A stretch of 20,000 bases of DNA from positions 50,071 to 70,070 of the forward strand of contig NKIB01012814.1 in assembly GCA_002256025.1 (NCBI GenBank), in the 5' to 3' direction. Made by a program: the position numbers and the translations under genes. Source of the DNA: Asterionella formosa. Its lineage: Eukaryota. This document shows, in pieces, positions 3,788 through 19,746 of the stretch. Each line of letters opens with the position of its first letter. Position 1 is the first letter of the stretch. The notes beneath the pieces were generated by a model. That model was not told the origin of the DNA. It saw nothing but the letters and a program-made list of their open reading frames with translations, and made no database searches.

Positions 3788-4523
3788 AGGATGAATGCAA
3801 CAACAAGTCGTCAAAAGTGCGCAATCTTTCACGTTTTTGATCAGAACTTTTTGTGGACCATTGGGTAAAGGTGTTTGGCAGGAATTCCCTGACCTTTTCT
3901 TTGAAAGGGGTTCGATCCCTATTAAAAAATGATAACCCTAACGAAGAGTACACTGGTTTCAAACCGAATCTCAAACATTCTAAACATTATAAAACAAGTA
4001 CATCTAAGACGCCATTTACGGCACAGTTTCAAATTTATGTCTAAAGTGATGTATTTATGCTACTTTTCTAAAATATTATGTTACTTTGAAATATTATGTT
4101 ACTTTTTCCCTAATTTATTCGGGTCAAACAAAAATGTATTTCACTTATCAAATAATTATGTGATCATACCAATAATTATGTGTGTTCGTGACAATATATG
4201 TTGACCAACAAGCCATCACGACAGTATAAAAGCGAAATTATGCTGCTCCACTTCAATATTATGCTGGCTTCGATATATAATGAACGAAAGAGTTGCCAAT
4301 TCCGATTCACTTATTATTTTTTCTGCTCCAACATATTCCTTTGATCTCAACTGGCAAATAACAACACATGCAAGAGGAAGATTCACACAGTAGAATTCAG
4401 CGCACGTAGTAGTAGGTGCTGTTGTAGAAACATTGTTTAGTCATTGTTGATTGTAGAGTTCACAATAGCCTGCCAGATTAGAAATAAAGCACTGTTGGTC
4501 ATCATTGAGCATCGTTGAGCATT

Positions 4524-5250
4524 GCATGTCGCCGTAGTGAGTCGAAATTGAGATGTGCAACAATGGCCTTCTCCTCTTCGGAGCAGCCACATATAGTCTA
4601 CAACGATAACTCTAGAAAGTTAAATATAGAAAAGGAGCAGAAGATGAGCAGCTGTCAACGACTGAAGTCGTAAAATCGTTTATTTACAGCTGTTGCATAT
4701 TTTAACCTTGCATGTCGCCGTGGTGAGTCAAAATTGAGATGTGCCGCAATGGCCCTCTCCTTTTCGGAGCGGCTACAAATAGTCTACAGCGATAACTCTG
4801 GCAAGAAGTACAATGTATAAAAGTACCAAAGGATGAGTAGCTGTCAACGATTGACTTCGTAAATTTGTTTAGAAACAGCTGTAGCATACTACTTCAACAT
4901 TCAATGCATGTCGCTGTAGTCAGTCGAAATTGAGATGTGCCGCAATTGCCTTCTCCGGTTTGGAGGAGCTAGCGAAATTCTGAAGCGATAACTTTAGCAA
5001 TCACAAAATAGAAAAATAAGCAAAGGATGAGTAGCTGACAAAAATTGAATTCGTAAACTGGTTAAGAAACAGCTGTTGCATATTTTAACATTCATTATAT
5101 GTCGCCATAGTGAGTCAAAATTGAGATGTGGCTGCCCCAATGGCATTCTCCTTTCCGATCGGCTAGTAGATTACATCTATATTGATAACTGTAGCAATAA
5201 CAAATTGGTCGTAAACGCAATGGCCAAGTAGATGAGGACTATCAACTTCA
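4524..5250. repeat. Tandem array A: ~4 diverged copies of a ~190-bp unit
   Basis: The motif GCATGTCGCCGTAGTGAGTCRAAATTGAGATGTG recurs at ~4524, 4710, 4906 and 5097. GATAACT and GATGAG recur at matching offsets in all four copies, and ACAGCTGT(T/A)GCATA in the first three. Confidence 0.9.
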
Positions 5251-5529
5251 TTGAATTCAACCACTCCATACTAGCTAACCTGTATTTTTCGCAATATTTC
5301 GCACGTTTTCAGCACACCACCAGTCAATACACTCCAAAAGTACTTTCTAATGTCTGATTTGACCAATAAAACACTTAGCAATTTAGGAGATGGATGCAAT
5401 TTGGTATAGAATAATAGCTTTGAGTTTTGGGGCATCCCTGCTGATGTCCTAACTATCATCACGGCATAATAGTACATCCTATGGTAGTAAATCAAAAATG
5501 AGACGTGCAACAATCGCCATCTACAAAGT

Positions 5530-7175
5530 CTGATGCCTCCTTTGATCAATATATGTTTGTTATGAGTATATCGAAATTCACCTTGATGGCATTGATCTTT
5601 TGTACATCGAATACTATGCTGTATTGAAATCAGCCTTAAAATCATGGTGGAGCAAGATGGTTTGGAATTTCCGTTGCAACAGCACCTGATGATCAGTCCA
5701 ACATCACCGAAAATTCGCAAAACTTACAAATCCTGATGCCTCCTTTGATCAATATATGTTCGTTCTCAGAATATCAACATTCGCCATGACGGCATTGATC
5801 TCGTGTACATCGAATACTATTCTGGATATTAATTGGCCTTAAATTGGTGGACAAAGATGGCTTGGAATTGTTGTTGCCATAGCACTGATGATCAGTCCAC
5901 AAGCATCCGAAAATTTACACATCCTGATTCTTCTCAGAATATCGAGATTCGCCATGACTACATTGATCTCGTGTACATCGAATACATTACTGAATAGAAA
6001 TCGGCCTTAAATTGGTGGAGAAAGATGGTTTGGAATTTCCATTGCAACAGCACTTGTCCTTAGGAATTTTTGTTGCCACAGCACTGATGATAAGCCATTC
6101 CACAAGCATCCGAAAATTTAAGCATCCTGATGACTAACTTGATCAATATATGCTTGTTCTGGGAATATTGTTGTTTTAAATGAAGGCAATGATCTTGTGT
6201 ACATCGAATAATATGCTGGATACTAGAAATCGGCCTCAAATTGGTGGAGAAAGATGGTAAGGGATTTTTGTTGCCACAGCACTGATGTTCAGTCAAGAAG
6301 CATACGAAATTCACAAAACTTACACATCCTGATGCCTTCGTTGATCAATATATGTTTGTTCTGATCATATCAACATTCAACCTGACTGCATTGATCTTGT
6401 GTACATCTAATACTATGCTAGAGGGAAGCCGGCCAAAATTGGTTGCGAAAGATTGTTTGTATCCTACATCATTGATGATCATTCCACAAGCACCGACATT
6501 TTACACACATCCTAATGACCAATTTGATCGATATATGTTCGTTCTAAGCATATCGCCATTAACAATGATGGCACTGATCTCGTGTACATCGAATACTAGC
6601 TATGCGAGATAGAAATCGGCCTCAAATCGGTAGAGAAATATGTTTTGGAATTTTGGCTGCTACGGCACCACTTGTAATGCATCAGTCCACAGCAAGCACC
6701 GAAATTTTACAATCCTGATGCCTCCATTGATCAACATATGTTTGTTCTGAGCATATAAACATTCGAACTGACGGCATTGATTTCGTGTACATGATCGAAC
6801 ACTATGCTAGATGGAAATCTGCCTTAAATTGGATGAGAAGGGTTGTTTGGAATTTTTGTTGCTACTGCACTTAATGATCAGGCCACAAGCACTGAAAACT
6901 TACACAACATCCTGATGACCAACATTCTAAATAACGGCATTGATCTAGTGTACATCGAATACTATGCTAGATAGAAATTGACAATGAATTGGTAGAGAAA
7001 GATAGGTTGGAAGTTTGGTTGTTAAAGCAGTGGTCATCAGTCCACAGCAGGCACCTAAAATTTTAGAATCCTGACGCCTCCTTTGGACAAAAAACGTTCG
7101 TTCTGAGCGTATCGACATTCGACAAGGAGCCTCTGATCTCGGGTACATCGAATAATATATAAGATAGAAATTGGC
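5530..7175. repeat. Tandem array B: ~8.5 diverged copies of a ~190-200-bp unit
   Basis: Units begin CTGATGCCTCCTTTGATCAATATATGTT at ~5530, 5733, 5924, 6127, 6329, 6512, 6715, 6912 and 7071. A near-invariant TTGATCTCGTGTACATCGAATA core and AAATTGGTGGAGAAAGAT recur. Copies at 5924 and 6912 have internal deletions. Confidence 0.95.
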
Positions 7176-9559: not shown

Positions 9560-9796
9560 TTAAATTGTTGCACTACTGAAACTTGAATCCATAGATGGGC
9601 ATTCAACTTGTGCTTGCTTCTTGCATTTTTGCAGTATAGACTGGCTGGTGATCGATAGGCCAAAGTGTCTTGCTTTTCATGAACATCTACAAAGTACTAG
9701 TGCTTTTGTCGAGGTTTGAGTCTAAATCCAACTGCTATCATCCATTGAACTATTCCAGATACATCAAAGAATACGCTCCTGTCTTCAAAGGTAAGG
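9560..9796 (-). pseudogene. Fragment of an IS630/Tc1-mariner-like transposase
   Basis: Minus-strand translation IVQWMIAVGFRLKPRQKH*YFVDVHEKQDTLAYR...AHLWIQ resembles the W-x3-GF...YxDGHE[KR]...YR motif of Tc1-like transposases. It has an in-frame stop. The assignment is from recall. Confidence 0.5.
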
Positions 9797-9893
9797 AACT
9801 AGTACGATGACAAAGGAAATCTGATGAGACACGAAAATTAGGAAACCAGAGTCACTCTGTTACTATAAATAGACAGTCTCATGCTTGAAAGAA

Positions 9894-9945
9894 TACAATT
9901 TTTGCATTAAAGTGTCGGAAAATGCATAAACCGTCAGTCAGGGGA
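9894..9945 (+). repeat. Left terminal inverted repeat of the MULE (core)
   Basis: TACAATTTTTGCATTAAAGTGTCGGAAAATGCATAAACCGTCAGTCAGGGGA has 6 mismatches in 52 bp to the reverse complement of 13905-13956. Confidence 0.9.
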
Positions 9946-10782
9946 GTTTGTGATCATTTCCGCGATGCGAAGTTTTTATCCGTGTAAAGAGCAAGCCGTC
10001 TATTGTTAAATGGCTTAAAGTATATCTATAGTAAGCTGTCAAATGACCTTATCAAGATTCCATAGAAATATGAACCACGACAATTAGTGTGTACATGAAA
10101 GTCACTTCAAATTGACGTAGAGGAATTTGTTGCATCTTGAAATGTTGTTCCCTCTCCGAGAATACTGTTGCTCTGGTTTTTCTCATCTATTTCTACAAAA
10201 CATAGGAAACCTTATCTAGTCAAAGTTATCTAGCTCATCACCGCGGACTCAACACTGTCGCTACTTTGGTCGTATCTTCAAAACTGAGCAAATGACGACC
10301 AAAAACAACTGTCAGCGCCGATTTTAACTTTTTTTGTCAATACCAGTGCAAAAAGTTTTATTATTGAACGATAATTTTGTTTATGTCAGTCTGCATAAAC
10401 GTGCGAAATAGGAGTTGTTCATTGTCAATATTCGTGAAGATATTCAAACCCATAATTTCGTCATGGTCAAGATGGAGTTGCTGACTCATCGACCCCATAC
10501 CACAGGCAGCTGTACAAACACACATGTAAGTACTGGTAGTACATAACCAGTAGTATGTATGCAAAGCATATTACTTATGCATGCCAAGGATATTGAATAT
10601 TCATCACTCTATACATATGTTGTGGTACCAGAAGTTGGAATTAACATGTAATCCTGTAGGTCTGTCATTACTACATACTCGGCAGTAAAAGTCCACATCA
10701 TACATCATATCGGCATTATATTTGGAATTGTTGTGTGTATCCATGAATTACTTTTTGTCAAAAGTCGCTCCACAAATACGAA

Positions 10783-12282
10783 ATGTCTAGTTCTTCCAAC
10801 TCATCTCACAATTCACCCTCCTCTGAGGAGGATGATAGCATCTTGCAGCGTTCAGGAGATAGTTTGTCAGATGATAGTGCTTCCTCTTCTGGGAAAAAGG
10901 GGTAGACGCCATTAACTTTTCCATCCTGCCATTGTCACCTGCAGGCGACACTCCAGCATGCACTGACAATTTTCCTCTTCCCCATGGCGACACTCCTTGG
11001 TGCTGGGAACCGGACTCACCAGACTTATCATACAGACAATGACTGATTATACATTAGCTTGTCGCAAGGCTGTCAAGAAGATTTGGCCAAATGCCGAATT
11101 TACATTTGGTATGTGCTCTTATCATGCCTGGAATGCATGGGTAAAGAAGCATAGAGGAAAGTTCAAGAAATACGACAAAAACAAGAAGAGAATGGGTGAA
11201 GACTTCGAGGCGTATAAAAGAAGTCCCTGGATACAGCTAGTTCCAATCCTTCACGATTTGATGATTTTCAAGTGGATCAACACATACAAGGAAAAGGAAG
11301 TTGCAACTGCGTAGTTGACACAATGGGGTCCCACCATTCACACCAGAATTGAATTGAACATTTCCAATCTACTTCGTGGTGGTTTGCCTGCACACAACAA
11401 CAATTCAGAGGGCATCAACAGTGGTGATAAATCATTCTTTGACCATAGGAAGCCTTTAACAGCTTACTTCATTCATAACATGACTTACATGTTAGAGGAT
11501 TGTTCCAAAGGGGATCTATCATTTTGCTCCACTTTACACTCATCGGTACACTCGATAAATTTCTACAAGTCTATTTATAAGCTTCTTGAGAAAAGCCAAA
11601 ATGGGGAAGCTACATTTCTAACAGTGACATTTGATTTCAAGTGTGATTCAATTAGAATCGGAGAGGGTTCATTGTTGATTGCGACATCGTCATTTGTGGA
11701 CCTAAATATTATGTCCTCTATGCAAACAATGCAGTCCCAGAGTACTGCAACTGCATTGTCACAGCACAGTCAACTATCCCAATCTCGAAAGAGATATCTT
11801 TATATTGGGAACACAGAATCAGTTACTGCACTAACTGTTATGCAATTGATAAAGAAGAACAAAATGCATGATGAATACAAGAGCCTTCTCCGAAATCCTG
11901 AACAGTATTCTGCTAACCACACATTTGATGATGTCCTTTCCCTCACCTGCAGGTTTCACCTTATTGTATTGAACCTATTGTTTCCAAGAGTGAAAACTAT
12001 GATGTTGCTGTTACTAACTTTTTAGAAATTTTGGGAGCATGTGGATTGGGTTCCATTTCGATTAATAGCTTGAAAGCAATGGGCAATGAAGGCCTCATAT
12101 CTTGCCATTGTCATGCGTATTTAGCAAACGCGTGGTGTAAACATGCATGTGCTTTTGCATTTGACCATGGAATTATTTCTACCTTTCCAAAGACAATGCA
12201 TCCAAAGCCTAGTATTAAGAATAAAGGTTCTGGATGAATCAAAAATGTGAAATGTGTAGGTAACTTAGATATTAAAGGATGA
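10783..12282 (+). pseudogene. MULE transposase C-terminal half: second Asp, CxxH, catalytic Glu and SWIM finger
   Basis: ATG at 10783 opens the leader MSSSSNSSHNSPSSEEDDS. After frameshifts come WEPD../TMTDYTLACRKAVKKIWPNAEFTFGMCSYH (D at 11045, CxxH at 11114-11125) and PAHNNNSEGIN (E at 11408). The SWIM finger CHCHAYLANAWCKH lies at 12103-12144. The frame ends in TGA TAA at 12280-12285. It is disrupted by stops at 11312 and 12235 and by frameshifts near 10900, 11020 and 11970. Confidence 0.85.
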
Positions 12283-12351
12283 TAACGTGGAGGTAACTTA
12301 GATATCAAAGGATGATAACGTGGAAGTAACTTAGATATTAATAGATGATAA
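12259..12351. repeat. 33-bp tandem repeat, ~2.8 copies, at the 3' end of the plus-strand half-gene
   Basis: GGTAACTTAGATATYAAAGGATGATAACGTGGA occurs at 12259, 12292 and (partial, diverged) 12325. Confidence 0.95.
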
Positions 12352-12398
12352 ATTTAGAAAAGCACTAGTAGTAGTGCTGATTATAAAAGTTATCATTA

Positions 12399-13622
12399 CT
12401 AGATAGGAATATCATGAGTTTTCCTATATCTAACGAGCTCTTCCAAGGCAGACTGAATCGACGCAAATATGAATTTTTTGCGCTTTGTGGTGATCATGGC
12501 TTATCACTCCATATGCAATCGTTTTTGTTTGTTGAGCCAAGTTGGTTGTAATAACTGGAAAAACGCCGTTTCCTTCTTGTGTGAGTCTGTAAGATGCATC
12601 AGCAGCAAAGAAGATTGGATTGCCCCAGAATCGCTGTCAGTACGCATTCAGCAACAAATTCTCGGTTGTTAGTACAGCTACCAAAGAGTTGTCTTCTGGT
12701 CGACAGTCTATGCCAAGTAGGTACATCGAATGTTGCGTGAAATTAAAGATATTTCCCTTCTTATACGATTCAAGGACAGCAGCGATTCCTCCCCAGTTAT
12801 TGCCTTGACCATTTATTAGCCCAACCGATTTATTGCGTAAGCGAGTGAGTTGTCCTTTAATGCACTTTTTCAACTTTTCATCAACAGGAATTCCTTTTGC
12901 CCTATAGCCTCAGCAATGTAGCGTGCTGGTTTCATGTTCAATTTATTCGGGGAAGTAATTAACACAGACTGATAGTATTTGTGAATACGTTTCCTTATGC
13001 CATCCTTGACAACATTATGTTGTGTGTGTTTTAAGTCACCAATCTCAATTGTGGTCAAATTTGTTTTGGTATTGAATAATTCCCGAATTACAAAGGGACA
13101 TTTACAGGAATGGAAAAATGTGCATCTTTTCTTTGTAACTCTAATGCCGTCAGCTCTAAGGTATGGACGATCTTTTGATAACCACATGAGACTCCCGCCA
13201 CCTCCAAAATTCCGTTTTCCCAAATCGCAAAGGATACCTTCAACCTCCCCAATCTTGACATCCGTAGCAAAATAATTATTCACCCACACCTCGACTTTTG
13301 TATCATTTGGTGGATTGAAGAAACACAGTCATCAAGTGCTAAAAGAACCTCGCTTTCCAAGATACCAGGCTCTTCTGTGACAGTTCCCATTACACCTTCG
13401 ATTTCTTCGATATCACAGCTGTTGAAATCTTCCTCGTTACCCTCTTCAAATTTAGGCTATTTTTCGATACCAGAACTGTCAGTACTATCACTGTCGCTAT
13501 GACTGGGACTGTGATTGGGAATGTCATCTTCGTCAACCACTTCTTCGCTTTCTTCTGATATCTTCCATCCCAGTGGTTTTCAAACCACTGGGTCGGGATG
13601 TAAACAAGTTTCGTCTCAACAT
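12399..13622 (-). pseudogene. MULE transposase N-terminal half: acidic leader, WRKY/FAR1-like Zn domain and first catalytic Asp
   Basis: ATG at 13622 precedes an acidic stretch, EESEEVVDEDD...SDSDSTDSS. The Zn module KKRCTFFHSCKCPFVIRE...KHTQHN follows, then TTENLLLNAY*QRFWGNPIFFAADASYRLTQEG (D at 12600-12598) and TIAYGVISHD. After a 1-nt shift in an A run, it reads FIFASIQSALEELVRYRKTHDIPI and ends TAG TAA (12401-12396). It contains several stops and frameshifts. Confidence 0.85.
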
Positions 13623-13904
13623 GGAGGAGCGTCTATAATTTAATTTAATACCGGTATGTAGTTTTCTCCTCTATATCAACCCAAAAATTCCTTCCTTGGC
13701 GGTATATCAATGTGGGTACCGGTACATCGCTATGCATCCGATTTCTTGACAAAATGTACAGTAGTACAAATATATATTTATTTTTCGATATTCAATATAC
13801 TAAGTAAAAAGAGTCATTGATAATTTAGTTAGGAAAAGTTTTAATCATTGATAGAACTTATTATTGAATTGCTACAAATTTAGTCAAAAAAAGTAATCCC
13901 GAGT

Positions 13905-13970
13905 TCCCCTGACTAACTCATTATGCATTTTCCGACACTTTTATGCAAAAAGTGTAATAGACCCTCATGC
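13905..13970 (-). repeat. Right terminal inverted repeat of the MULE
   Basis: The reverse complement reads GCATGAGGGTCTAT-TACACTTTTTGCATAAAAGTGTCGGAAAATGCATAATGAGTTAGTCAGGGGA. The inner 52 bp pair with the left TIR. The outer boundary at 13970 is inferred. Confidence 0.85.
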
Positions 13971-14770
13971 TTCTTTGTGCATATCGCCTGCTATGCTGCG
14001 TTTCAATTCTAGATGTATTACATTCTTGTTAGAGAGAGGATGTTACGGAGAAGTAGATTGTGCTGTTCTATAATGGATGTTGTTTAGCTATGATCGAGGT
14101 TGTAACACTGATTGATGCTTTGGTGACAGACTGGCCGGAAATATTCGTCTTGTGTGATGAGCCATTTCGTTTTCATTGGATTTCTTTTCGAGCTCTTCAC
14201 GAATTGCATACGAACATACTGTGCAATGTAGATGATGATTCATCGAAGACATAAGATGACTTGGACGACAAAAGAAGATTTATCACAAACACTCGTTCCT
14301 CTCGACATGGCTGGGCTGCTTTGTCGTTGTTGCAAGAATCAGAGTGAGGACTGGCGAGGATGATGAGCCAAACCACATTACTCTAGCTGGTACATTATCC
14401 TACTAAGAAATATAAATAAAGGAAGCAACCTAAAAGAAACAATACATATAATAACTAAATTTCCAAAGTCAAAAGGGTTACTATTTAAATTACGAGGGCA
14501 TTTATCAAAATTATAAGATGATATAACGAAAAATTATGATCAGATGATCATAATCCTATGATGCATCATAGTAATATGATGATTTTTATTTGCAGACGAT
14601 GCCACGTTCCAGTGGTGGTCGTCTCATTTCCGAAATTGGAGTTGGTGGTAAAGGAGGACAAAATATAGTCGCCAATTAAAATCAGAATTGGTGGACCTCT
14701 AAAATGCCTTTTCTTCCCCCTAAAAGAACACATCACCAATTGAAACATACTCTCAACTGAATTTCAATCA

Positions 14771-15715
14771 TATAATCGACTTTAATTCATTATCGAAACT
14801 GCCGCAGGAAGATATGTACTGCAAAAGTTGTGTGAATAATTTGTAAAAGAATATTGCAAACAATCACTTCATGACTTTGTAACTTCCTTTGCATCAAATC
14901 GAAAGCAAAAGCTGTCCTTCGAACAGCAATGTGAAGCATTTCTAGACCAGGATGTGTTTGACAATCCGATTTCAACAATGAACCAACCGTTGATTGTTGT
15001 CTCTACCAAAAATTACGGTTTTGCAAGCCAATTCAAAGTCTCCTGCTTGACCTCTTGTCAGAAACTGATTTCTAAAATTGAATCTGCAAGAAGCAACAGC
15101 AATGGAGACAGAAATGATGAGATAGGAAATAGTGCAATAGAAGCAAAAGTATTTTCTATCAACAAACAGTTTATCTTGGGTTTTCACGAAGCCGGAATGG
15201 GACCGGCTGATACAGATATATCTGCTCCGCAATGGACTTTCCACTTACCTTTGGATTTTGGTCTACAAAAGGTAATTTCGGTGATGTAGAGAAACTGGTC
15301 GGAAAGGTTGAAGTTGCTGCAACCGCTCTTGTAATGAAAGAAGCGTGCCAGGAAGAAATATATCAGACACTCAATGTGCATGAACGAGAAGACTGGGCTG
15401 ACAAAGGACGTGATTTTCAGTGGTGGAACAGTCTTGCTGCTATGGACCGCTTGTCTGTACTGAATATGTTGCAACTCACAGCTAGTTACAATAGGGGATG
15501 GCATCAGCGGTCCAACGGGAATAAGTATAACTCAGTAAGATGTCATGCTTTTTGTATTTGCGGCTACACGAAAAAATACTAGACTACAGAGTGAAATCTG
15601 AAGTCTGTAATGCGTGCGACAGGGCTGTACGGTTCAAGAAACCAACACCAAGGAACATGTTTGTCCCAAGAATCATGTAACTGGTACTAGTTCAAAGGCA
15701 ATGGAAGCAGAGGTC
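14771..15715 (+). pseudogene. Truncated, frameshifted Mutator-like (Phantom-type) transposase of a second family
   Basis: Successive fragments read IIDFNSLSK...YCKSC, YGFASQFKVSC, FSINKQFILGFHEAGMG, LTASYNRGWHQRSNGNKYNSVRCHAFCICGYTKK, ILDYRVKSEVCNAC and HVCPKNHVTGTSSKAMEAE. This follows the D-x-x-W-x-x-R...S-x-x-GH...CxxC...HxCxxN...SSxxME pattern of that family. The first Asp position reads Asn, and similarity ends before the remaining catalytic residues. Confidence 0.8.
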
Positions 15716-16744: not shown

Positions 16745-19111
16745 TTAGTCTATGGACTTGCGTACCATCGCCAGGAGACGCTTCTTTTCCAAAAGTAGGT
16801 CGCCATATTTCGTTTGAGCATGGGATTCAGATGCTTCCAACAAGCCGATATCAACCTTCAGCGCTTCGAGGCGCATTGAAGCCCCACGAACTTCGTGAGA
16901 TTGCAGGTTGAGAAAGACTGATTCTTCAATGCGCAGATTCTGAAGAACTGCAAAGTCCTGCAAAATGGTATCCAGGAACACTAAAGCTCTTTTTGCATAT
17001 CCACCATTCTTGACAGAGACTCTGTTTTCGACCCTGTCGTTCTTTTTGCTCAACACAGCAGTCGCACTTTTCAATGCATCGACCTCGGCTTTCATCGCAG
17101 CAACTACATTTTTGTCATCCAGTGCTGACGTCAACCCGGACATACCAAATACGGCATCTTTTGCACCTTGAATCGATACTTCAATTGTCGCGCGGACAAG
17201 GCCATCTATGGCATCGTGTTCATGTGCAAATTTTCCACTTGCCATGGCACAGGTAAGCTGTGTCGATAAAAGTTGGTCGGACTCAATTTGTATTGCTAAC
17301 TTGGCGTCGTTCAATGCACTTTCTGGAATGTAGTCCAGTGGTGTCTCCATAGGCAAATTATCCTGATTTCTTTTCTTTGCTCGTTTTTCGCCGCCAGCGT
17401 CCATAGGAAAAGCATATGCATCATGTTTCAACAAGAGCAAGCGTTCATCTTGAATCAACAGTTCCGCCACACTCGACGCTTCCACAGTCGATTCTGGAAT
17501 GATGCTAGTTGGTCGAGGTAGATCGGTACGTTTGACTACACTAGATCTCGCTGCATAAAGAATTTCTGATTCTTTGCGACGTCTCTCTCGCTCCGCAGCA
17601 TCAACATCAGCATGATCCGCATCATCCGTGACTGTGCCCACCAACGTACTGTCGATGTCGCCTGCATCAATAGGTGCAGACAATTCATATTCAAACTGGG
17701 GTGCTGGTAGAGCCGCTAGGGCGTCTTCCAGTTCCTTTCGGGCTCGCTTACTAGCTCGACGTTCCTCGCGCGCCATGTCCCGAATCGACATAGTTGACGA
17801 AGCAAAGGTAGATCCTCCCACTGACACTGCATCATCGTCCACCTTATGGAGACGAAATTCATCTCTTGCGGAAGGACGCGGCGTGACGTTAGGCTTGCTT
17901 TCCATAGAAATGTTGGTCTTGGCAATCGGAGCTTCATGACTGTCGAAAAAATCCCCACTAAGCAATGGCGTCTGTGCCTGTTCTAAGGCTCGCAATTGGC
18001 TAGCCTGATTTAACAATGACTCATGAGTGTTTGTTCTGACACCTGCTACGGGTGTCCTCATCGGAGTGGGCAGAGGACGACCACTGTAATCACCAAGTAA
18101 GGCTTCCGTAGCAGACGAACTTCCAATTATTGCTGTAACATGTTGCTGTAAAAATTCCAGCTTGGCCATTTTATGCAATTCTAAATCGCTCACACTTGGA
18201 GCTGGCAATTCCAATACGCCACGCTTCCGAGTATTTAGGGGATCGGCTGTCTTACTTACTGCCGCCACTGCATATTGCATGTTACTCCTTTCCAAGTTTT
18301 GCAGCCTCGCCTCTTCTCGTTTCTTGGCCTGTAGGGCCTCGCGATCCCTAGTCCTAAATTGGTTTTCATTGAGCTCCTTAAAGTCGACGCTTTTTACCCT
18401 CTTTTGGCGTAAAATTTCAGCTGTCATGCTCTCCTCGGAAGTGTCGTGAAATCCTGCTGGAGCGGGCTTGTGAAAGGGTATCTCCACTCCCAAATCAATC
18501 TCTCTTTTGTTGCGCGTCTTGCTCCTCGCTGCAGAACTCAACAATCCTGCCTGCTTCAACTCCCTCCTCTTTTGTAAATCCGCCAATCGCTTTGCTTGCG
18601 CCAAAAGCTTCTCTCTTGCTTTGCGCTTAGCCTTCTTTCCCTGGGTGTTGGCGAGACGGGCTCTGGCTTCTTGGAGCATCTCGATCTCGTCCTCATCCAT
18701 GTCCACAGGGTCTGGCCTGGCTGGCTTCGTTTCCGGGGCCGAGTCAATCTGGCCGGGTTGAAAATTGGTAGAGCGAGCCTCTGATCCAGCTGCTGCATCC
18801 AGTAATTGCTCGTAGTGCTCTTGGCATTGCGCAGCAGTACGCCCCACCAGAGGGCCAATTGTCTTCCATTGAGCCGGCATGAGTTTGGCGAGATGAAGTA
18901 GTTTCTCTTCTTCCTGTCGACTCCATTCCACTTTCCGAACTGAAGGATCGAGCCACTCGTGCCACCTAGCCTTGGCTTGTTTTGCAGATTTGCGATTCAA
19001 GAGTGATGCAACCCGAGCCCAATTTTGTTTGCCGTACTTCATCACCGCGGCCTTGAGGATTTCATCTTCGGAGTTCTTCCAGACGCCGCCTTTTATGAAA
19101 ACTTTCACCAT
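16745..19111 (-). CDS. CDC5: Pre-mRNA splicing factor CDC5/CEF1 (CDC5L), 788 aa, intronless
   Basis: MVKVFIKGGVWKNSEDEILKAAVMKYGKQNWARVASLL...WHEWLDP...EWSRQEEEKLLHLAKLMPAQW gives two Myb repeats. PETKPARPDPVDMDEDEIEMLQEARARLANTQGKKAKRKARE and EIPFHKPAPAGFHD are CDC5 hallmarks. The true ATG is at 19111; the ORF track's 19138 start is a TTG. Confidence 0.98.
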   Translation of the reverse strand: MVKVFIKGGVWKNSEDEILKAAVMKYGKQNWARVASLLNRKSAKQAKARWHEWLDPSVRKVEWSRQEEEKLLHLAKLMPAQWKTIGPLVGRTAAQCQEHYEQLLDAAAGSEARSTNFQPGQIDSAPETKPARPDPVDMDEDEIEMLQEARARLANTQGKKAKRKAREKLLAQAKRLADLQKRRELKQAGLLSSAARSKTRNKREIDLGVEIPFHKPAPAGFHDTSEESMTAEILRQKRVKSVDFKELNENQFRTRDREALQAKKREEARLQNLERSNMQYAVAAVSKTADPLNTRKRGVLELPAPSVSDLELHKMAKLEFLQQHVTAIIGSSSATEALLGDYSGRPLPTPMRTPVAGVRTNTHESLLNQASQLRALEQAQTPLLSGDFFDSHEAPIAKTNISMESKPNVTPRPSARDEFRLHKVDDDAVSVGGSTFASSTMSIRDMAREERRASKRARKELEDALAALPAPQFEYELSAPIDAGDIDSTLVGTVTDDADHADVDAAERERRRKESEILYAARSSVVKRTDLPRPTSIIPESTVEASSVAELLIQDERLLLLKHDAYAFPMDAGGEKRAKKRNQDNLPMETPLDYIPESALNDAKLAIQIESDQLLSTQLTCAMASGKFAHEHDAIDGLVRATIEVSIQGAKDAVFGMSGLTSALDDKNVVAAMKAEVDALKSATAVLSKKNDRVENRVSVKNGGYAKRALVFLDTILQDFAVLQNLRIEESVFLNLQSHEVRGASMRLEALKVDIGLLEASESHAQTKYGDLLLEKKRLLAMVRKSID

Positions 19112-19746
19112 TTTCAGATAAGCTGTGCGTAAGTACAACAGCGAAATGTGAAGGAGACGAGAATGAATGCAAGGGTAGCCTAGTTCCAGTGAAGTCTAAT
19201 AACATCCCTCGCCTCTGCCTGCATCTGTACATACAAGATGTGATTCATGGGTTTGAAATCATCATCGCCACATCGCCCGCCACGCCCAGAGGGGCTGAAG
19301 GTTATATAACTTGTAAGAAATCAGCTGTTTACTAGTCCTGATAGCTCATAAATTTTCTAATGAATCGATGCTATTTGTCTTATTTATTTTCATCAATTAA
19401 GCTACCGGTACCTGCAGGTTGCACACACTATTGCAGCAATTCCGGCTCCAGCTACCAGTATCATCTTGCCACTCGGGTACTTCTTATTCACACCCTGAAT
19501 TTTAGGTCAAACCGACACCTAAAAATTGGTCAGTACAAAATGTACACACGAGAATGACTTCTACCTCGGGCAGACCACACCCATCCATACAACCCTAATA
19601 AAGAAAGCACTGATATTATGCTTCACCTCGTGAAATTTCAATAAATAGCTAATATAGTACTGGTATGTCTACTTCAATAATTGGATAGCATTTATATGAA
19701 TTTTTAAGATAATTAATTCACCTAAACCTCTTGACCAACTCCATGT

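Follow-up and report, generated by a model that had tools for sequence, protein, structure and literature searches.

As described so far, transposases and integrases of the DDE/RNase H-like type have their complete catalytic triad on a single chain. Some elements need more than one element-encoded protein, as the element described here probably does; Tn7 (TnsA and TnsB), PIF/Harbinger (a Myb-like protein and a DDE protein) and CACTA (TnpA and TnpD) are examples. There the active site is whole in every catalytic protein, or DNA binding and catalysis fall to separate proteins. To our knowledge, in none of them are a single RNase H-like fold and its DDE triad shared between two chains. In maize MuDR, a Mutator-like element (MULE), the genes mudrA and mudrB are convergent.

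MULEs have a target-site duplication (TSD) of 8-11 bp, and the survey that gives this range lists MuDR (mudrA and mudrB), Mutyl (mutA and mutB) and Hiun (vanA/B/C) as two-gene MULEs, and tabulates 'MULE-Diatoms' with a SWIM domain and one ORF (PMC6446971). One class of MULEs has a WRKY-GCM1/FLYWCH-type zinc finger at the N terminus (PMC1702500). An active MULE of Phaeodactylum tricornutum, which transposed in real time, is described as 3707 bp long; it has a TSD of 9 bp and expresses two ORFs, of which one is called a transposase with MULE and SWIM domains and the other, Phatr3_J50367, is a diatom-specific zinc-finger protein that was read as E3-ligase-like (bioRxiv 10.1101/2023.01.02.522487). 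An exact-phrase search of open-access text for a split, bipartite or two-ORF DDE transposase returned no report; apart from two irrelevant matches, only Tn7 appeared there, as a 'heteromeric transposase'.

The locus studied here lies in a window of 20,000 nucleotides from Asterionella formosa (contig NKIB01012814.1). It resembles MULEs (MuDR MURA, Hop, Jittery, TvMULE and 'MULE-Diatoms') and the IS256 family (ISCth4) in its terminal inverted repeats (TIRs), its 9-bp TSD and the order of its motifs, namely zinc finger, D, D, C/DxxH in a helical insertion, E and SWIM. In canonical MULEs and IS256 the triad is described in one polypeptide, which for MULEs is usual but not a formal part of their definition, whereas in this element two genes, each with its own start and stop, lie on opposite strands, one encoding the first Asp and the other the D/E pair. 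MuDR, Mutyl and Hiun share with it a second gene inside the TIRs of an autonomous MULE; their second gene is unrelated and their transposase whole, whereas the second gene here encodes the N-terminal third of the transposase. This differs from the MuDR type in that the second gene aligns to residues 146-408 of P0094, a colinear relative of 859 aa (E 1.2e-32 with the N-half profile), and to the first half of the Pfam MULE profile. The arrangement is not of the Tn7 type either, and TnsB was matched by its helix-turn-helix only (Z 4.5). We estimate at about 65% the probability that the element in the window is a dead member of a MULE lineage in which two separate, convergent genes encode the DDE transposase. 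The working enzyme is probably assembled from two proteins. The element and its genes, called the N gene and the C gene after the halves that they encode, have the following features in window coordinates:

9878-9886, no strand: left copy of the TSD, CTCATGCTT (sequence reading; empty-site joints)
9887-9959, plus strand: left TIR, with the element start at 9887 (inverted-repeat search and alignment)
10783-12285, plus strand: C gene (sequence; tblastn of P0003/P0005/P0006/P0010/P0012)
about 10896, after 11024, and 11312-11314, plus strand: lesions of the C gene, two 1-bp deletions and a TAG
11962-11966 and 12235-12237, plus strand: further lesions of the C gene, a 5-bp insertion and a TGA
12251-12351, no strand: three tandem 33-bp units, which contain the C-gene stop and take up the larger part of the spacer between the stops
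12286-12398, no strand: spacer of 113 bp between the two convergent stops (read from the sequence)
12399-13568, minus strand: N gene (sequence, tblastn of P0152-P0155, alignment of 12 relatives)
about 13555, 13457-13459, and within 13280-13328, minus strand: lesions of the N gene, a frameshift, a TAG and a frameshift
12903, 12637-12639 and 12476, minus strand: further lesions of the N gene, a 2-bp insertion, a TGA and a 1-bp insertion
13891-13963, minus strand: right TIR, with the element end at 13963 (inverted-repeat search, alignment, loose ends at 13963/13964)
13964-13972, no strand: right copy of the TSD, CTCATGCTT (sequence reading; empty-site joints)

Positions 9887-13963 form one decayed MULE. 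The two copies of CTCATGCTT are identical, a perfect 9-bp TSD. The TIR arms at 9894-9959 and 13891-13956 (66 nt) are 82% complementary and run on to the termini at 9887 and 13963, and self-comparison of the window found no TIRs inside the element. The TSD is within the MULE range and has the length typical of MULEs, and TIRs are present, so that both marks of a MULE are found. The empty site was seen as a joint from 9877 to 13964 with nine shared letters in the DNA runs X1 (n = 8 contigs) and X2 (n = 2), and other copies appeared in run contigs as loose ends from 9887 on with flanks unlike those of the window (agreement 0.36-0.44). The family is highly repeated, and its sites occur both occupied and empty. 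The terminal regions were 5-10 times commoner in run contigs than the interior of the element, so many copies are mobilised in trans anyway. Contigs of independent runs covered every depth bin; the spacer was the lowest bin in four of four runs, yet not empty. The window copy is dead, with at least 11 lesions, and other copies in run contigs and in the contigs L001-L003 described below are without them.

The C gene has its own ATG at 10783 and a Ser/Asp/Glu leader that extends to about 10900. The conserved pre-beta4 motif PAGDTPACTDNFPLP..WCWEPD follows at 10941-11015, and downstream of it are the second Asp (11045-11047, within IIQTMTD), the CxxH motif (MCSYH, 11114-11125), the catalytic Glu (11408-11410, within NNNSEGIN), a SWIM finger of the form CxCx8CxH (12103-12144) and the stop TGA TAA (12280-12285). 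The in-frame TGA at 12235 sits before this true stop. A scan of metagenome contigs gave three short contigs, L001-L003 (1051, 1852 and 1301 bp), which hold the C gene or the region upstream of it and all end short of the N gene. L003, a copy 92% identical, is a single open frame from the leader ATG through WEPD..MTD..CSYH. L002 reads CGA at the in-frame TGA and is unlike the window after 12281 (its last 89 bases), and the T that is absent after 11024 in the window copy is present in all three contigs. Among four C-gene copies dN/dS was 0.24-0.44 in six of six pairs. Scans of viral contigs and genome contigs found no relative, and a word-based protein search with P0005 returned P0005 itself only. 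A GT..AG intron at 10902-10944 was considered and rejected; its removal does not restore the frame, L003 is open across it and an RNA contig is unspliced there.

In public protein sets the relatives of the C half numbered 162 at E ≤ 1e-3, with phmmer E down to 7e-107. MTD is reached by 75 of the 150 listed matches, and in 74 of these 75 the second Asp lies within the first 200 residues, the median position of MTD being about residue 64. An initial M was present in 32 of the 36 listed matches of at least 380 aa. The leaders of the C proteins are open and Met-initiated over 17 to more than 100 codons in many lineages. In an alignment of 15 C relatives D132, C155, H158, N249, N250, E253 and N256 were invariant, and the SWIM residues C466, C468, C477 and H479 nearly so.

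In the N gene an acidic/Ser leader precedes a WRKY-type zinc finger, C-x7-C-x23-H-x2-H, at 13017-13124. The first catalytic Asp (12598-12600) lies within FFAADASYRL, and the gene ends with the helix ...ELVRYRKTHDIPI and then TAG TAA TGA TAA (12401 down to 12390). The leaders of the two genes are similar; an origin of one from the other by duplication was rejected, since self-comparison found TIRs only and the likeness is a low-complexity resemblance. Relatives of the N half were found with phmmer E down to 3e-51; the 'longer' search gave four matches, all of 328-377 aa, and the 'near' search gave 18 clusters. Twelve of these relatives were aligned, with 23-51% identity to P0153. In 11 of the 12 the protein ends at the same point, just past alpha1 within a tolerance of about three residues, and the twelfth is cut short. 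The first Asp (D278) is invariant, as are C102, C110 and H137 of the zinc finger, and H134 is nearly so. In the predicted model the zinc finger is a four-stranded sheet and the chain ends with beta1-beta2-beta3-alpha1. Fold matches of the zinc finger lay below Z 8 (AFT2, Z 5.5; WRKY33, Z 4.6; WRKY1, Z 4.5), and atlas neighbours with FLYWCH/MULE are a lead only.

The similarity of both halves to their relatives is far beyond chance by the sequence searches. Only one of the 150 listed matches of the C half, P0094, is colinear. Its identity to the halves is about 21-31%, and its linker, a plain peptide, aligns with the 'APRED..W.WEP' segment; when P0094 was aligned jointly with both halves, the N halves were misplaced, and that alignment served for the C part and the linker only. 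Against Pfam MULE (PF10551), matches, all below the cut-off, were obtained for 9 of 12 N proteins (profile positions 2-61) and for 2 of 28 C-type proteins (positions 56-97). Each chain covers only about half of the 99-position profile, and the best score was 24.1 bits (an N protein, E 4.9e-5) against a cut-off of 27.6. PF21056 (ZSWIM1-3_RNaseH-like) reached 23.8 bits against 27.2, and Pfam SWIM, a finger that many but not all MULEs have, was matched by 6 of 28 C-type proteins, the best at 19.5 bits against 19.6. The single-frame fragments of the window gave no Pfam match. The three catalytic residues do not lie in one polypeptide in the window, in L003 or in the relatives, and neither chain carries the full DDE set in the N and C alignments.

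The predicted model of the C protein begins with a disordered leader and continues with beta4-alpha-beta5, so that in the RNase H-like fold the gene break falls after helix alpha1 and before strand beta4. Its best structural match was ISCth4 of the IS256 family (6xg8_A; Z 7.2, rmsd 5.2, 160 aligned, rank 1 of 48,161) and the next match had Z 6.2, where a Z below 8 can reflect a common arrangement. In Foldseek, ISCth4 ranked 8-9 for the C model with E of about 2, and neither model had a match at E ≤ 0.001. The sequence search of the PDB with both family profiles found no relative, only one chance row at E 1.5. The spacing in the C half, D-23-CxxH-~95-E, is similar to that of D241, C262/H265 and E348 in ISCth4. 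Between them, the invariant residues of the N and C proteins make up a DDE core of Mutator/IS256 type, with its C/DxxH motif a short way past the second Asp.

The two halves were modelled together as P0003[95-522] and P0153[195-343], a non-cognate pair from different lineages. The predicted complex scored 0.77, whereas the best of three controls scored 0.00. Of 78 solved complexes 51 attained this mark, as did 2 of 108 mismatched pairs; by construction, the two parts of a divided fold are apt to pass such a test. The runs shared at least 80% of contacts; pLDDT was at least 78 for the partner and only 54-56 for the C chain. The predicted interface comprises residues 125-132 (beta4 with the second Asp), 155 and 242-251 on the C side, and 271-278 (beta1 with the first Asp) and 313-343 (alpha1) on the N side.

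These results may be put together as follows. The N protein (about 330-380 aa) would contain a WRKY-type zinc finger, a helix-turn-helix and the opening third of the RNase H-like core (beta1-beta3 and alpha1, with the first Asp). The C protein, of about 410-520 aa, would start with its own Met, a disordered acidic leader and the conserved 'APRED.FPLP..W.WEP' segment, and continue with beta4 and the second Asp, a helical insertion that bears CxxH, the Glu of the triad and, at the C terminus, a SWIM finger. On association, beta4 of the C protein would come to lie beside beta1 of the N protein and one active site would be rebuilt; the heteromer would then carry out cut-and-paste transposition with 9-bp duplications. 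The layout may have arisen from a colinear, P0094-like ancestor by inversion of one half, followed by the gain of a new start. Comparison of copies and relatives shows, at the level of sequence, that the split is of old date, runs through the whole family and is subject to purifying selection.

Both genes appear in RNA. In the polyA RNA run X17, depth was found over 10757-12266 and 12418-13474, i.e. both genes, and was zero on the flanking repeat, though this repeat had the deepest DNA in the same sample. The RNA evidence consists of contigs, without strand or transcript ends. Regarding linkage of the two genes, N and C clusters lay on contigs of exactly equal size twice, P0161 and P0005 on 3710 bp and P0245 and P0012 on 3009 bp (P = 0.00075 for at least two matches; jitter null, contigs of at least 2400 bp). 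This equality of contig size, which by itself implies no orientation, suggests that the N and C genes are linked in two distant lineages. The convergent layout was seen in the window copy alone.

The layout could be peculiar to this dead copy, if about 1.5 kb within a colinear family gene had been inverted. Turning the 3' half round once would yield what is seen, in a copy that has at least 11 other lesions, and both genes were found together in one contig only. However, such an event leaves unexplained the conserved stop in 11 of 12 N relatives and the Met and leader that C relatives have of their own. It also sits poorly with the L003 frame, open from the leader ATG into the catalytic part, and with the four consecutive stops after the N gene. 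No strand switch at the gene junctions was found among the 15 best-supported of 78 joints (29,513 X1 contigs), which is weak evidence, since only 15 of the 78 joints were covered and no listed piece bridges both stops. Given the N-only and C-only proteins and L003, we regard a one-off inversion as very improbable. It is hardly credible that the layout is an assembly artefact or a chance nesting of two unrelated partial elements. A highly repeated family is prone to misassembly, but there is a single TIR pair with a perfect TSD and no internal TIRs, the two halves complement each other exactly when set against Pfam MULE and P0094, contigs of independent runs fill every bin including the spacer, and an RNA contig of another copy runs from the 3' end of the C gene into the same spacer sequence.

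One polypeptide could also be made through RNA, by trans-splicing of the convergent transcripts or, in the distant relatives, by an intron between colinear halves that gene prediction takes for a stop followed by a new start. The N-gene stop contains GTAATG (after ...ATC TA), and the distant relatives are known from protein calls, which do not give strand and spacing. However, cis-splicing is impossible in the window, where the genes are on opposite strands, and introns would not keep the long open leaders of the C proteins. Furthermore, an RNA contig identical to the window copy is unspliced through 10817-11026, no joint between the genes is listed in the RNA runs, and the linker of P0094 is plain peptide. 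Joining at the RNA level is quite improbable. A different objection accepts two proteins and denies them a shared active site: the N protein would be a DNA-binding or regulatory truncation, the C protein inactive or in another role, and mobility would be supplied in trans. Truncated transposases that keep the DNA-binding domain are regulators in other families, and the excess of termini over interiors agrees with this view. Against it, the first Asp is invariant in N proteins and the second Asp, CxxH and Glu in C proteins, which would be unexpected if either half were idle; the sole colinear relative among the listed matches is too distant for an obvious helper; and the complex prediction puts beta1 beside beta4. 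We consider two proteins without a shared site unlikely.

The reading of two convergent genes agrees in most respects with the original prediction. It had placed both genes within one TIR pair, and they lie there, with every motif that it quoted present on both strands. Its dead, frameshifted copy, its N gene that closes directly after the helix downstream of the first Asp, its C gene with a start of its own, its complementary halves and its break in a loop of the fold were all borne out, the last in the predicted models, and its preference for a two-polypeptide family gained support. Trans-splicing, which it had offered as an option, received none; the C start is conserved, and the N gene closes with a row of four stops. 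Two details needed correction. The in-frame TGA at 12235 lies ahead of the C-gene stop, and the N start was probably misplaced; ATG 13568 (MEDI..., cf. MEDSSS... in P0153) is more likely than the alternative at 13622.

We lean slightly towards a still stronger statement, that this is a natural, transposition-competent DDE transposase with a single RNase H-like active site built from two chains of convergent genes, in an old and abundant lineage whose diverse members (25-65% identical to one another) are expressed in microalgae of fresh water and the sea. If so, a core split between beta3/alpha1 and beta4 would tolerate fragment complementation in vivo, and activity would require that both convergent genes be expressed together, which would offer a built-in control by dosage or antisense. 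It would also be a natural template for split transposase tools. For annotation, halves that stay below the Pfam MULE threshold are labelled 'hypothetical protein' or receive unrelated labels, and one of the halves so mislabelled may be the second ORF of the active diatom element. The Phaeodactylum element has TIRs of about 200 bp, as against about 70 bp here, and its likeness is by description, a lead only. If its two ORFs are of the same kind, activity of such an enzyme has already been observed, unrecognised.

The tandem 33-bp units in the spacer vary between copies, being fewer in the RNA contig that derives from another copy.

The window carries a Mutator-like element (MULE) that has a target-site duplication, terminal inverted repeats (TIRs) and a DDE triad with CxxH. 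Two convergent genes lie in it, here called the N gene (zinc finger and first Asp) and the C gene. All of the motifs quoted in the original prediction were found in the sequence. The N-gene start proposed there, 13622, is in the same frame, but the ATG at 13568 is more probable. The features are as follows.

Features of the element
9887-13963 (4077 bp): MULE, one DNA transposon, delimited by TIRs and a flanking direct repeat
9878-9886 and 13964-13972: perfect 9-bp direct repeat CTCATGCTT flanking the element, read from the sequence
9894-9959 and 13891-13956: TIR arms, 66 nt, 82% complementary; the alignment reaches the termini
10783 to 12280-12285, plus: C gene, ATG to TGA TAA; Ser/acidic leader, then PAGDTPACTDNFPLP..WCWEPD
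11045-11047, plus: second Asp, in IIQTMTD, followed by MCSYH
11408-11410, plus: Glu, in NNNSEGIN
12103-12144, plus: SWIM, CxCx8CxH
12251-12351: three tandem 33-bp units (90% matches) that contain the last codons and stop of the C gene and fill the spacer
13568 to 12399-12401, minus: N gene, probable ATG to TAG, then directly TAA, TGA, TAA
13017-13124, minus: zinc finger C-x7-C-x23-H-x2-H, downstream of an acidic/Ser leader
12598-12600, minus: first Asp, in FFAADASYRL; the helix after it ends ELVRYRKTHDIPI

This copy is dead: the C gene carries at least five lesions and the N gene at least six, and other copies are free of them. Three short metagenome contigs with other copies (L001-L003) all have the T that is absent after 11024 in the window, and L003 has the G missing near 10896. 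L002 is without the 5-bp insertion at 11962 and has CGA at 12235 where the window has TGA. Among the contigs of public runs, other copies have G for A at 11313, which turns TAG into TGG, and two letters are absent at 12903 and one at 12476. A 24-nt palindrome, CCCAGTGGTTTGAAAACCACTGGG (minus strand), is located at 13569-13592, directly upstream of the probable N-gene ATG.

The original prediction suggested that the division into two polypeptides is a property of the family and not a one-off inversion, and this reading is supported by protein relatives and by L003. The C-half query (window 10967-12025, with the single in-frame stop entered as X) was compared by phmmer with 1.84 billion representative proteins, giving 162 matches at E<=1e-3, of which 84 had E<=1e-10 and 23 had E<=1e-30. 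Among the 150 C-half matches listed, 75 reached the MTD motif, which lay within the first 200 residues in 74 of them (median about 64); 36 of the 75 were at least 380 aa long and 32 of these 36 began with Met. The full-length C-half proteins (P0003, 522 aa; P0005, 427; P0006, 508; P0010, 442; P0012, 484; P0018, 451; and others) are composed of Met, a variable acidic/Ser leader, the conserved 'G.APRED.FPLP......W.WEP', MTD, and a C-terminal SWIM and 'GR.KKA.RGGAL' tail. An N-half search allowing 280-2000 aa matched only four proteins, all of 328-377 aa, and a search for near relatives of P0153, an N-half protein, found 18 N-half clusters. When 12 N-half proteins (23-51% identical to P0153) were aligned, 11 stopped within about 3 residues of one point, just past the helix after the first Asp, the exception (P0160) being cut short; Met starts were present in 11 of the 12.

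A profile of four N-half proteins matched only one of the 150 listed C-half matches, P0094. This 859-aa protein is colinear: its N part occupies residues 146-408 (E 1.2e-32) and its C part residues 481-685. Its linker '..FVGREDNDLFVKP....FCYKP..ITLIKD' can be aligned to the 'APRED.FPLP..W.WEP..MTD' segment found in the split forms, and in the C part the protein is 21-31% identical to them. Judged from these proteins, the split forms make up a large clade that does have colinear relatives, though distant ones. In L003 (92% identical), one open frame runs from the leader ATG (MSSSSNSSHNSSSEEDD...) through WEPD, MTD and CSYH, so the C-gene leader does encode protein. Neither the N-only and C-only protein families nor the open frame of L003 can be explained by a single inversion in this copy. 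The family-wide division of the transposase into two genes is well supported, and we put its probability at about 0.9. Some relatives have extra Cys/His-rich modules, N-terminally in P0094 and P0141 and C-terminally in P0048, and P0108 and P0050 resemble C halves joined to low-complexity or leucine-rich-repeat sequence that is unrelated.

The break appears to fall within the RNase H-like core. The last elements of the N model (P0153; AlphaFold2, 12-row alignment, mean pLDDT 69) are strands at 274-277, 289-296 and 302-310 and a helix at 315-339; as modelled, they are beta1-beta2-beta3-alpha1 of the core, and residue 278 is the first Asp. In the C model (P0003; 15 rows, mean pLDDT 72), residues 1-108 have pLDDT <50, followed by a strand at 126-130 (second Asp 132), a helix, a strand at 149-153 (C155, H158) and a helical region with E253. 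Partial matches to Pfam MULE, all below the 27.6-bit cut-off (best 24.1), agree with this position: profile positions 2-61 are matched in 9 of 12 N proteins and positions 56-97 in 2 of 28 C-type proteins. The C model's best structural match in an all-against-all search was ISCth4, an IS256-family transposase (rank 1 of 48,161; Z 7.2, rmsd 5.2, 160 aligned; next row Z 6.2). One paper states that IS256 transposases resemble MULE transposases and gives the ISCth4 residues as D175, D241, E348 and C262/H265 (PMC7780238); on these residues, the D-CxxH-E spacing is the same as in the split-MULE family. The N model resembles AFT2 and WRKY domains in its zinc-finger part (Z 4.5-5.5) and helix-turn-helix domains at 148-207 (IstA, Z 5.6). 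Since all Z are below 8 and Foldseek gave no match at E<=0.001 for either model, the fold evidence is supportive, not decisive.

Association of the two chains, envisaged in the original prediction, was predicted with relatives. P0003[95-522] and P0153[195-343], a non-cognate pair run without alignments, scored 0.77 (runs 0.76, 0.77, 0.78), and the best of three controls scored 0.00. A score of 0.77 was attained by 51 of the 78 solved complexes and by 2 of the 108 mismatched pairs, although halves of one fold tend to pass this test. At least 80% of contacts agreed between runs; pLDDT was at least 78 for the partner and 54-56 for the C chain. The confident interface comprises 105-121 (the conserved pre-beta4 segment), 125-132, 155 and 242-251 on the C side and 271-278 and 313-343 on the N side. 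Neither half has a sequence relative in the PDB, which makes it less likely that the pair passed because the predictor had memorised a similar complex. In the predicted complex, beta4 of C would pair alongside beta1 of N, and the conserved 'APRED..W.WEP' segment of C would clasp alpha1 of N. The active transposase may be the N + C heteromer, and we consider such heteromeric catalysis fairly probable.

The first Asp is invariant in all 12 aligned N proteins; among the 15 aligned C proteins, the second Asp, the Cys and His of CxxH and NN..E..N are likewise invariant. The dN/dS comparison proposed earlier, run on the C gene of the window and L001-L003, gave 0.24-0.44 in 6/6 pairs (Nei-Gojobori; 154-478 codons, small counts). 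In the polyA RNA run X17, from the same sample as the DNA run X1, contigs that are unstranded and without transcript ends span 10757-12266 and 12418-13474 with a dip in the spacer bin, and depth is zero on 10455-10756 and 13475-14200. Carry-over of DNA is ruled out as the source, because the zero-depth flank at 13928-14200 is the deepest DNA in X1. Several X17 contigs derive from other copies (91-97% alike), and both genes are also covered in X18, a metatranscriptome from another study. Because only 113 bp separate the convergent stop codons, transcript 3' ends may overlap. The 33-bp units are fewer in an expressed relative.

The two genes are probably linked elsewhere. When source-contig sizes of 78 N-half and 28 C-half cluster members were compared, two were identical in bp, each within one source: P0161 and P0005 (3710 bp, JGI) and P0245 and P0012 (3009 bp, Logan), both sizes fitting both genes. 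At least two such matches among contigs of at least 2400 bp have P = 0.00075 (jitter null). Since these pairs are 34-39% identical to other lineages, the linkage is probably old. The convergent layout likely occurs beyond the window. The N gene was present in none of the three short contigs found in the metagenome scan, and a scan of viral and prokaryote genome collections found no relative. In L002 (coverage about 1), likeness to the window ends after the equivalent of 12281 and the last 89 bases (1764-1852) read as an unrelated ORF; the contig may be chimeric, or this copy may have another 3' neighbour. Upstream of its C gene, near window 10566-10575, L003 has about 170 extra bases (about 430-600) that look like a local duplication.

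Among the described MULEs that we found, none has the triad on two chains, whereas the element in the window does. An exact-phrase literature search for split or bipartite DDE transposases returned only 'heteromeric transposase' papers on Tn7 and two irrelevant matches. The proteins of Tn7 each carry an active site of their own. In a survey of 1631 MULEs, second ORFs are unrelated accessory genes and 'MULE-Diatoms' have one ORF with SWIM (PMC6446971). A preprint on a Phaeodactylum MULE (3707 bp, 9-bp TSD), which transposed during an experiment, describes a 'transposase' ORF (MULE + SWIM) and a diatom-specific zinc-finger ORF, an E3 ligase in the authors' reading (bioRxiv 10.1101/2023.01.02.522487). 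On that description, the zinc-finger ORF might be a candidate N half.

Contigs from four public runs were placed on 9700-14200. Contigs of the empty site, in which 9877 is joined to 13964 with 9 letters common to both sides, occur in X1 (n=8) and in a second DNA run, X2 (n=2). Agreement is low (0.36-0.5) at the loose contig ends at 9887 and 13963/13964, indicating other copies in other flanks, and the 29,513 fitting X1 contigs indicate a highly repeated family. Summed X1 depth is about 450,000-600,000 at the ends (9851-10605 and 13777-13963) versus about 55,000-200,000 in the coding interior (10606-13776), the ends being 5-10 times more abundant, and one contig links 10539 to 13798 with 3258 bases left out between. 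This suggests many internally deleted, non-autonomous derivatives. One X17 RNA contig (733 nt) has the left end of the element (9886-10051) embedded in another transcript.

The split MULE is inserted within another repeat (9700-9886 and 13964-14200, to about 15300), whose summed X1 depth of about 1.5 million is about 3 times that of the MULE's own ends. The window also contains two ordinary host genes on the minus strand, at 3-1241 and 16745-19195, so it is eukaryotic nuclear DNA. One encodes a TLC-domain (TRAM/LAG1/CLN8) protein (E 1e-29), the other a Myb splicing factor of the CDC5/Cef1 type (E 4e-24 for Myb_Cef and 5.5e-21 for Myb DNA-binding). A satellite-like block at 4508-7164, with no protein-family match, consists of arrays of ~190-200-bp repeats (families of 111-141 nt with 3-7 copies apiece, spaced 183-203 bp). 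In the repeat that hosts the MULE, an ORF at 14840-15289 (plus) weakly matches 'Mutator-like transposase' (Pfam PF20700; E 0.0032; 16.9 bits, cut-off 26.5).
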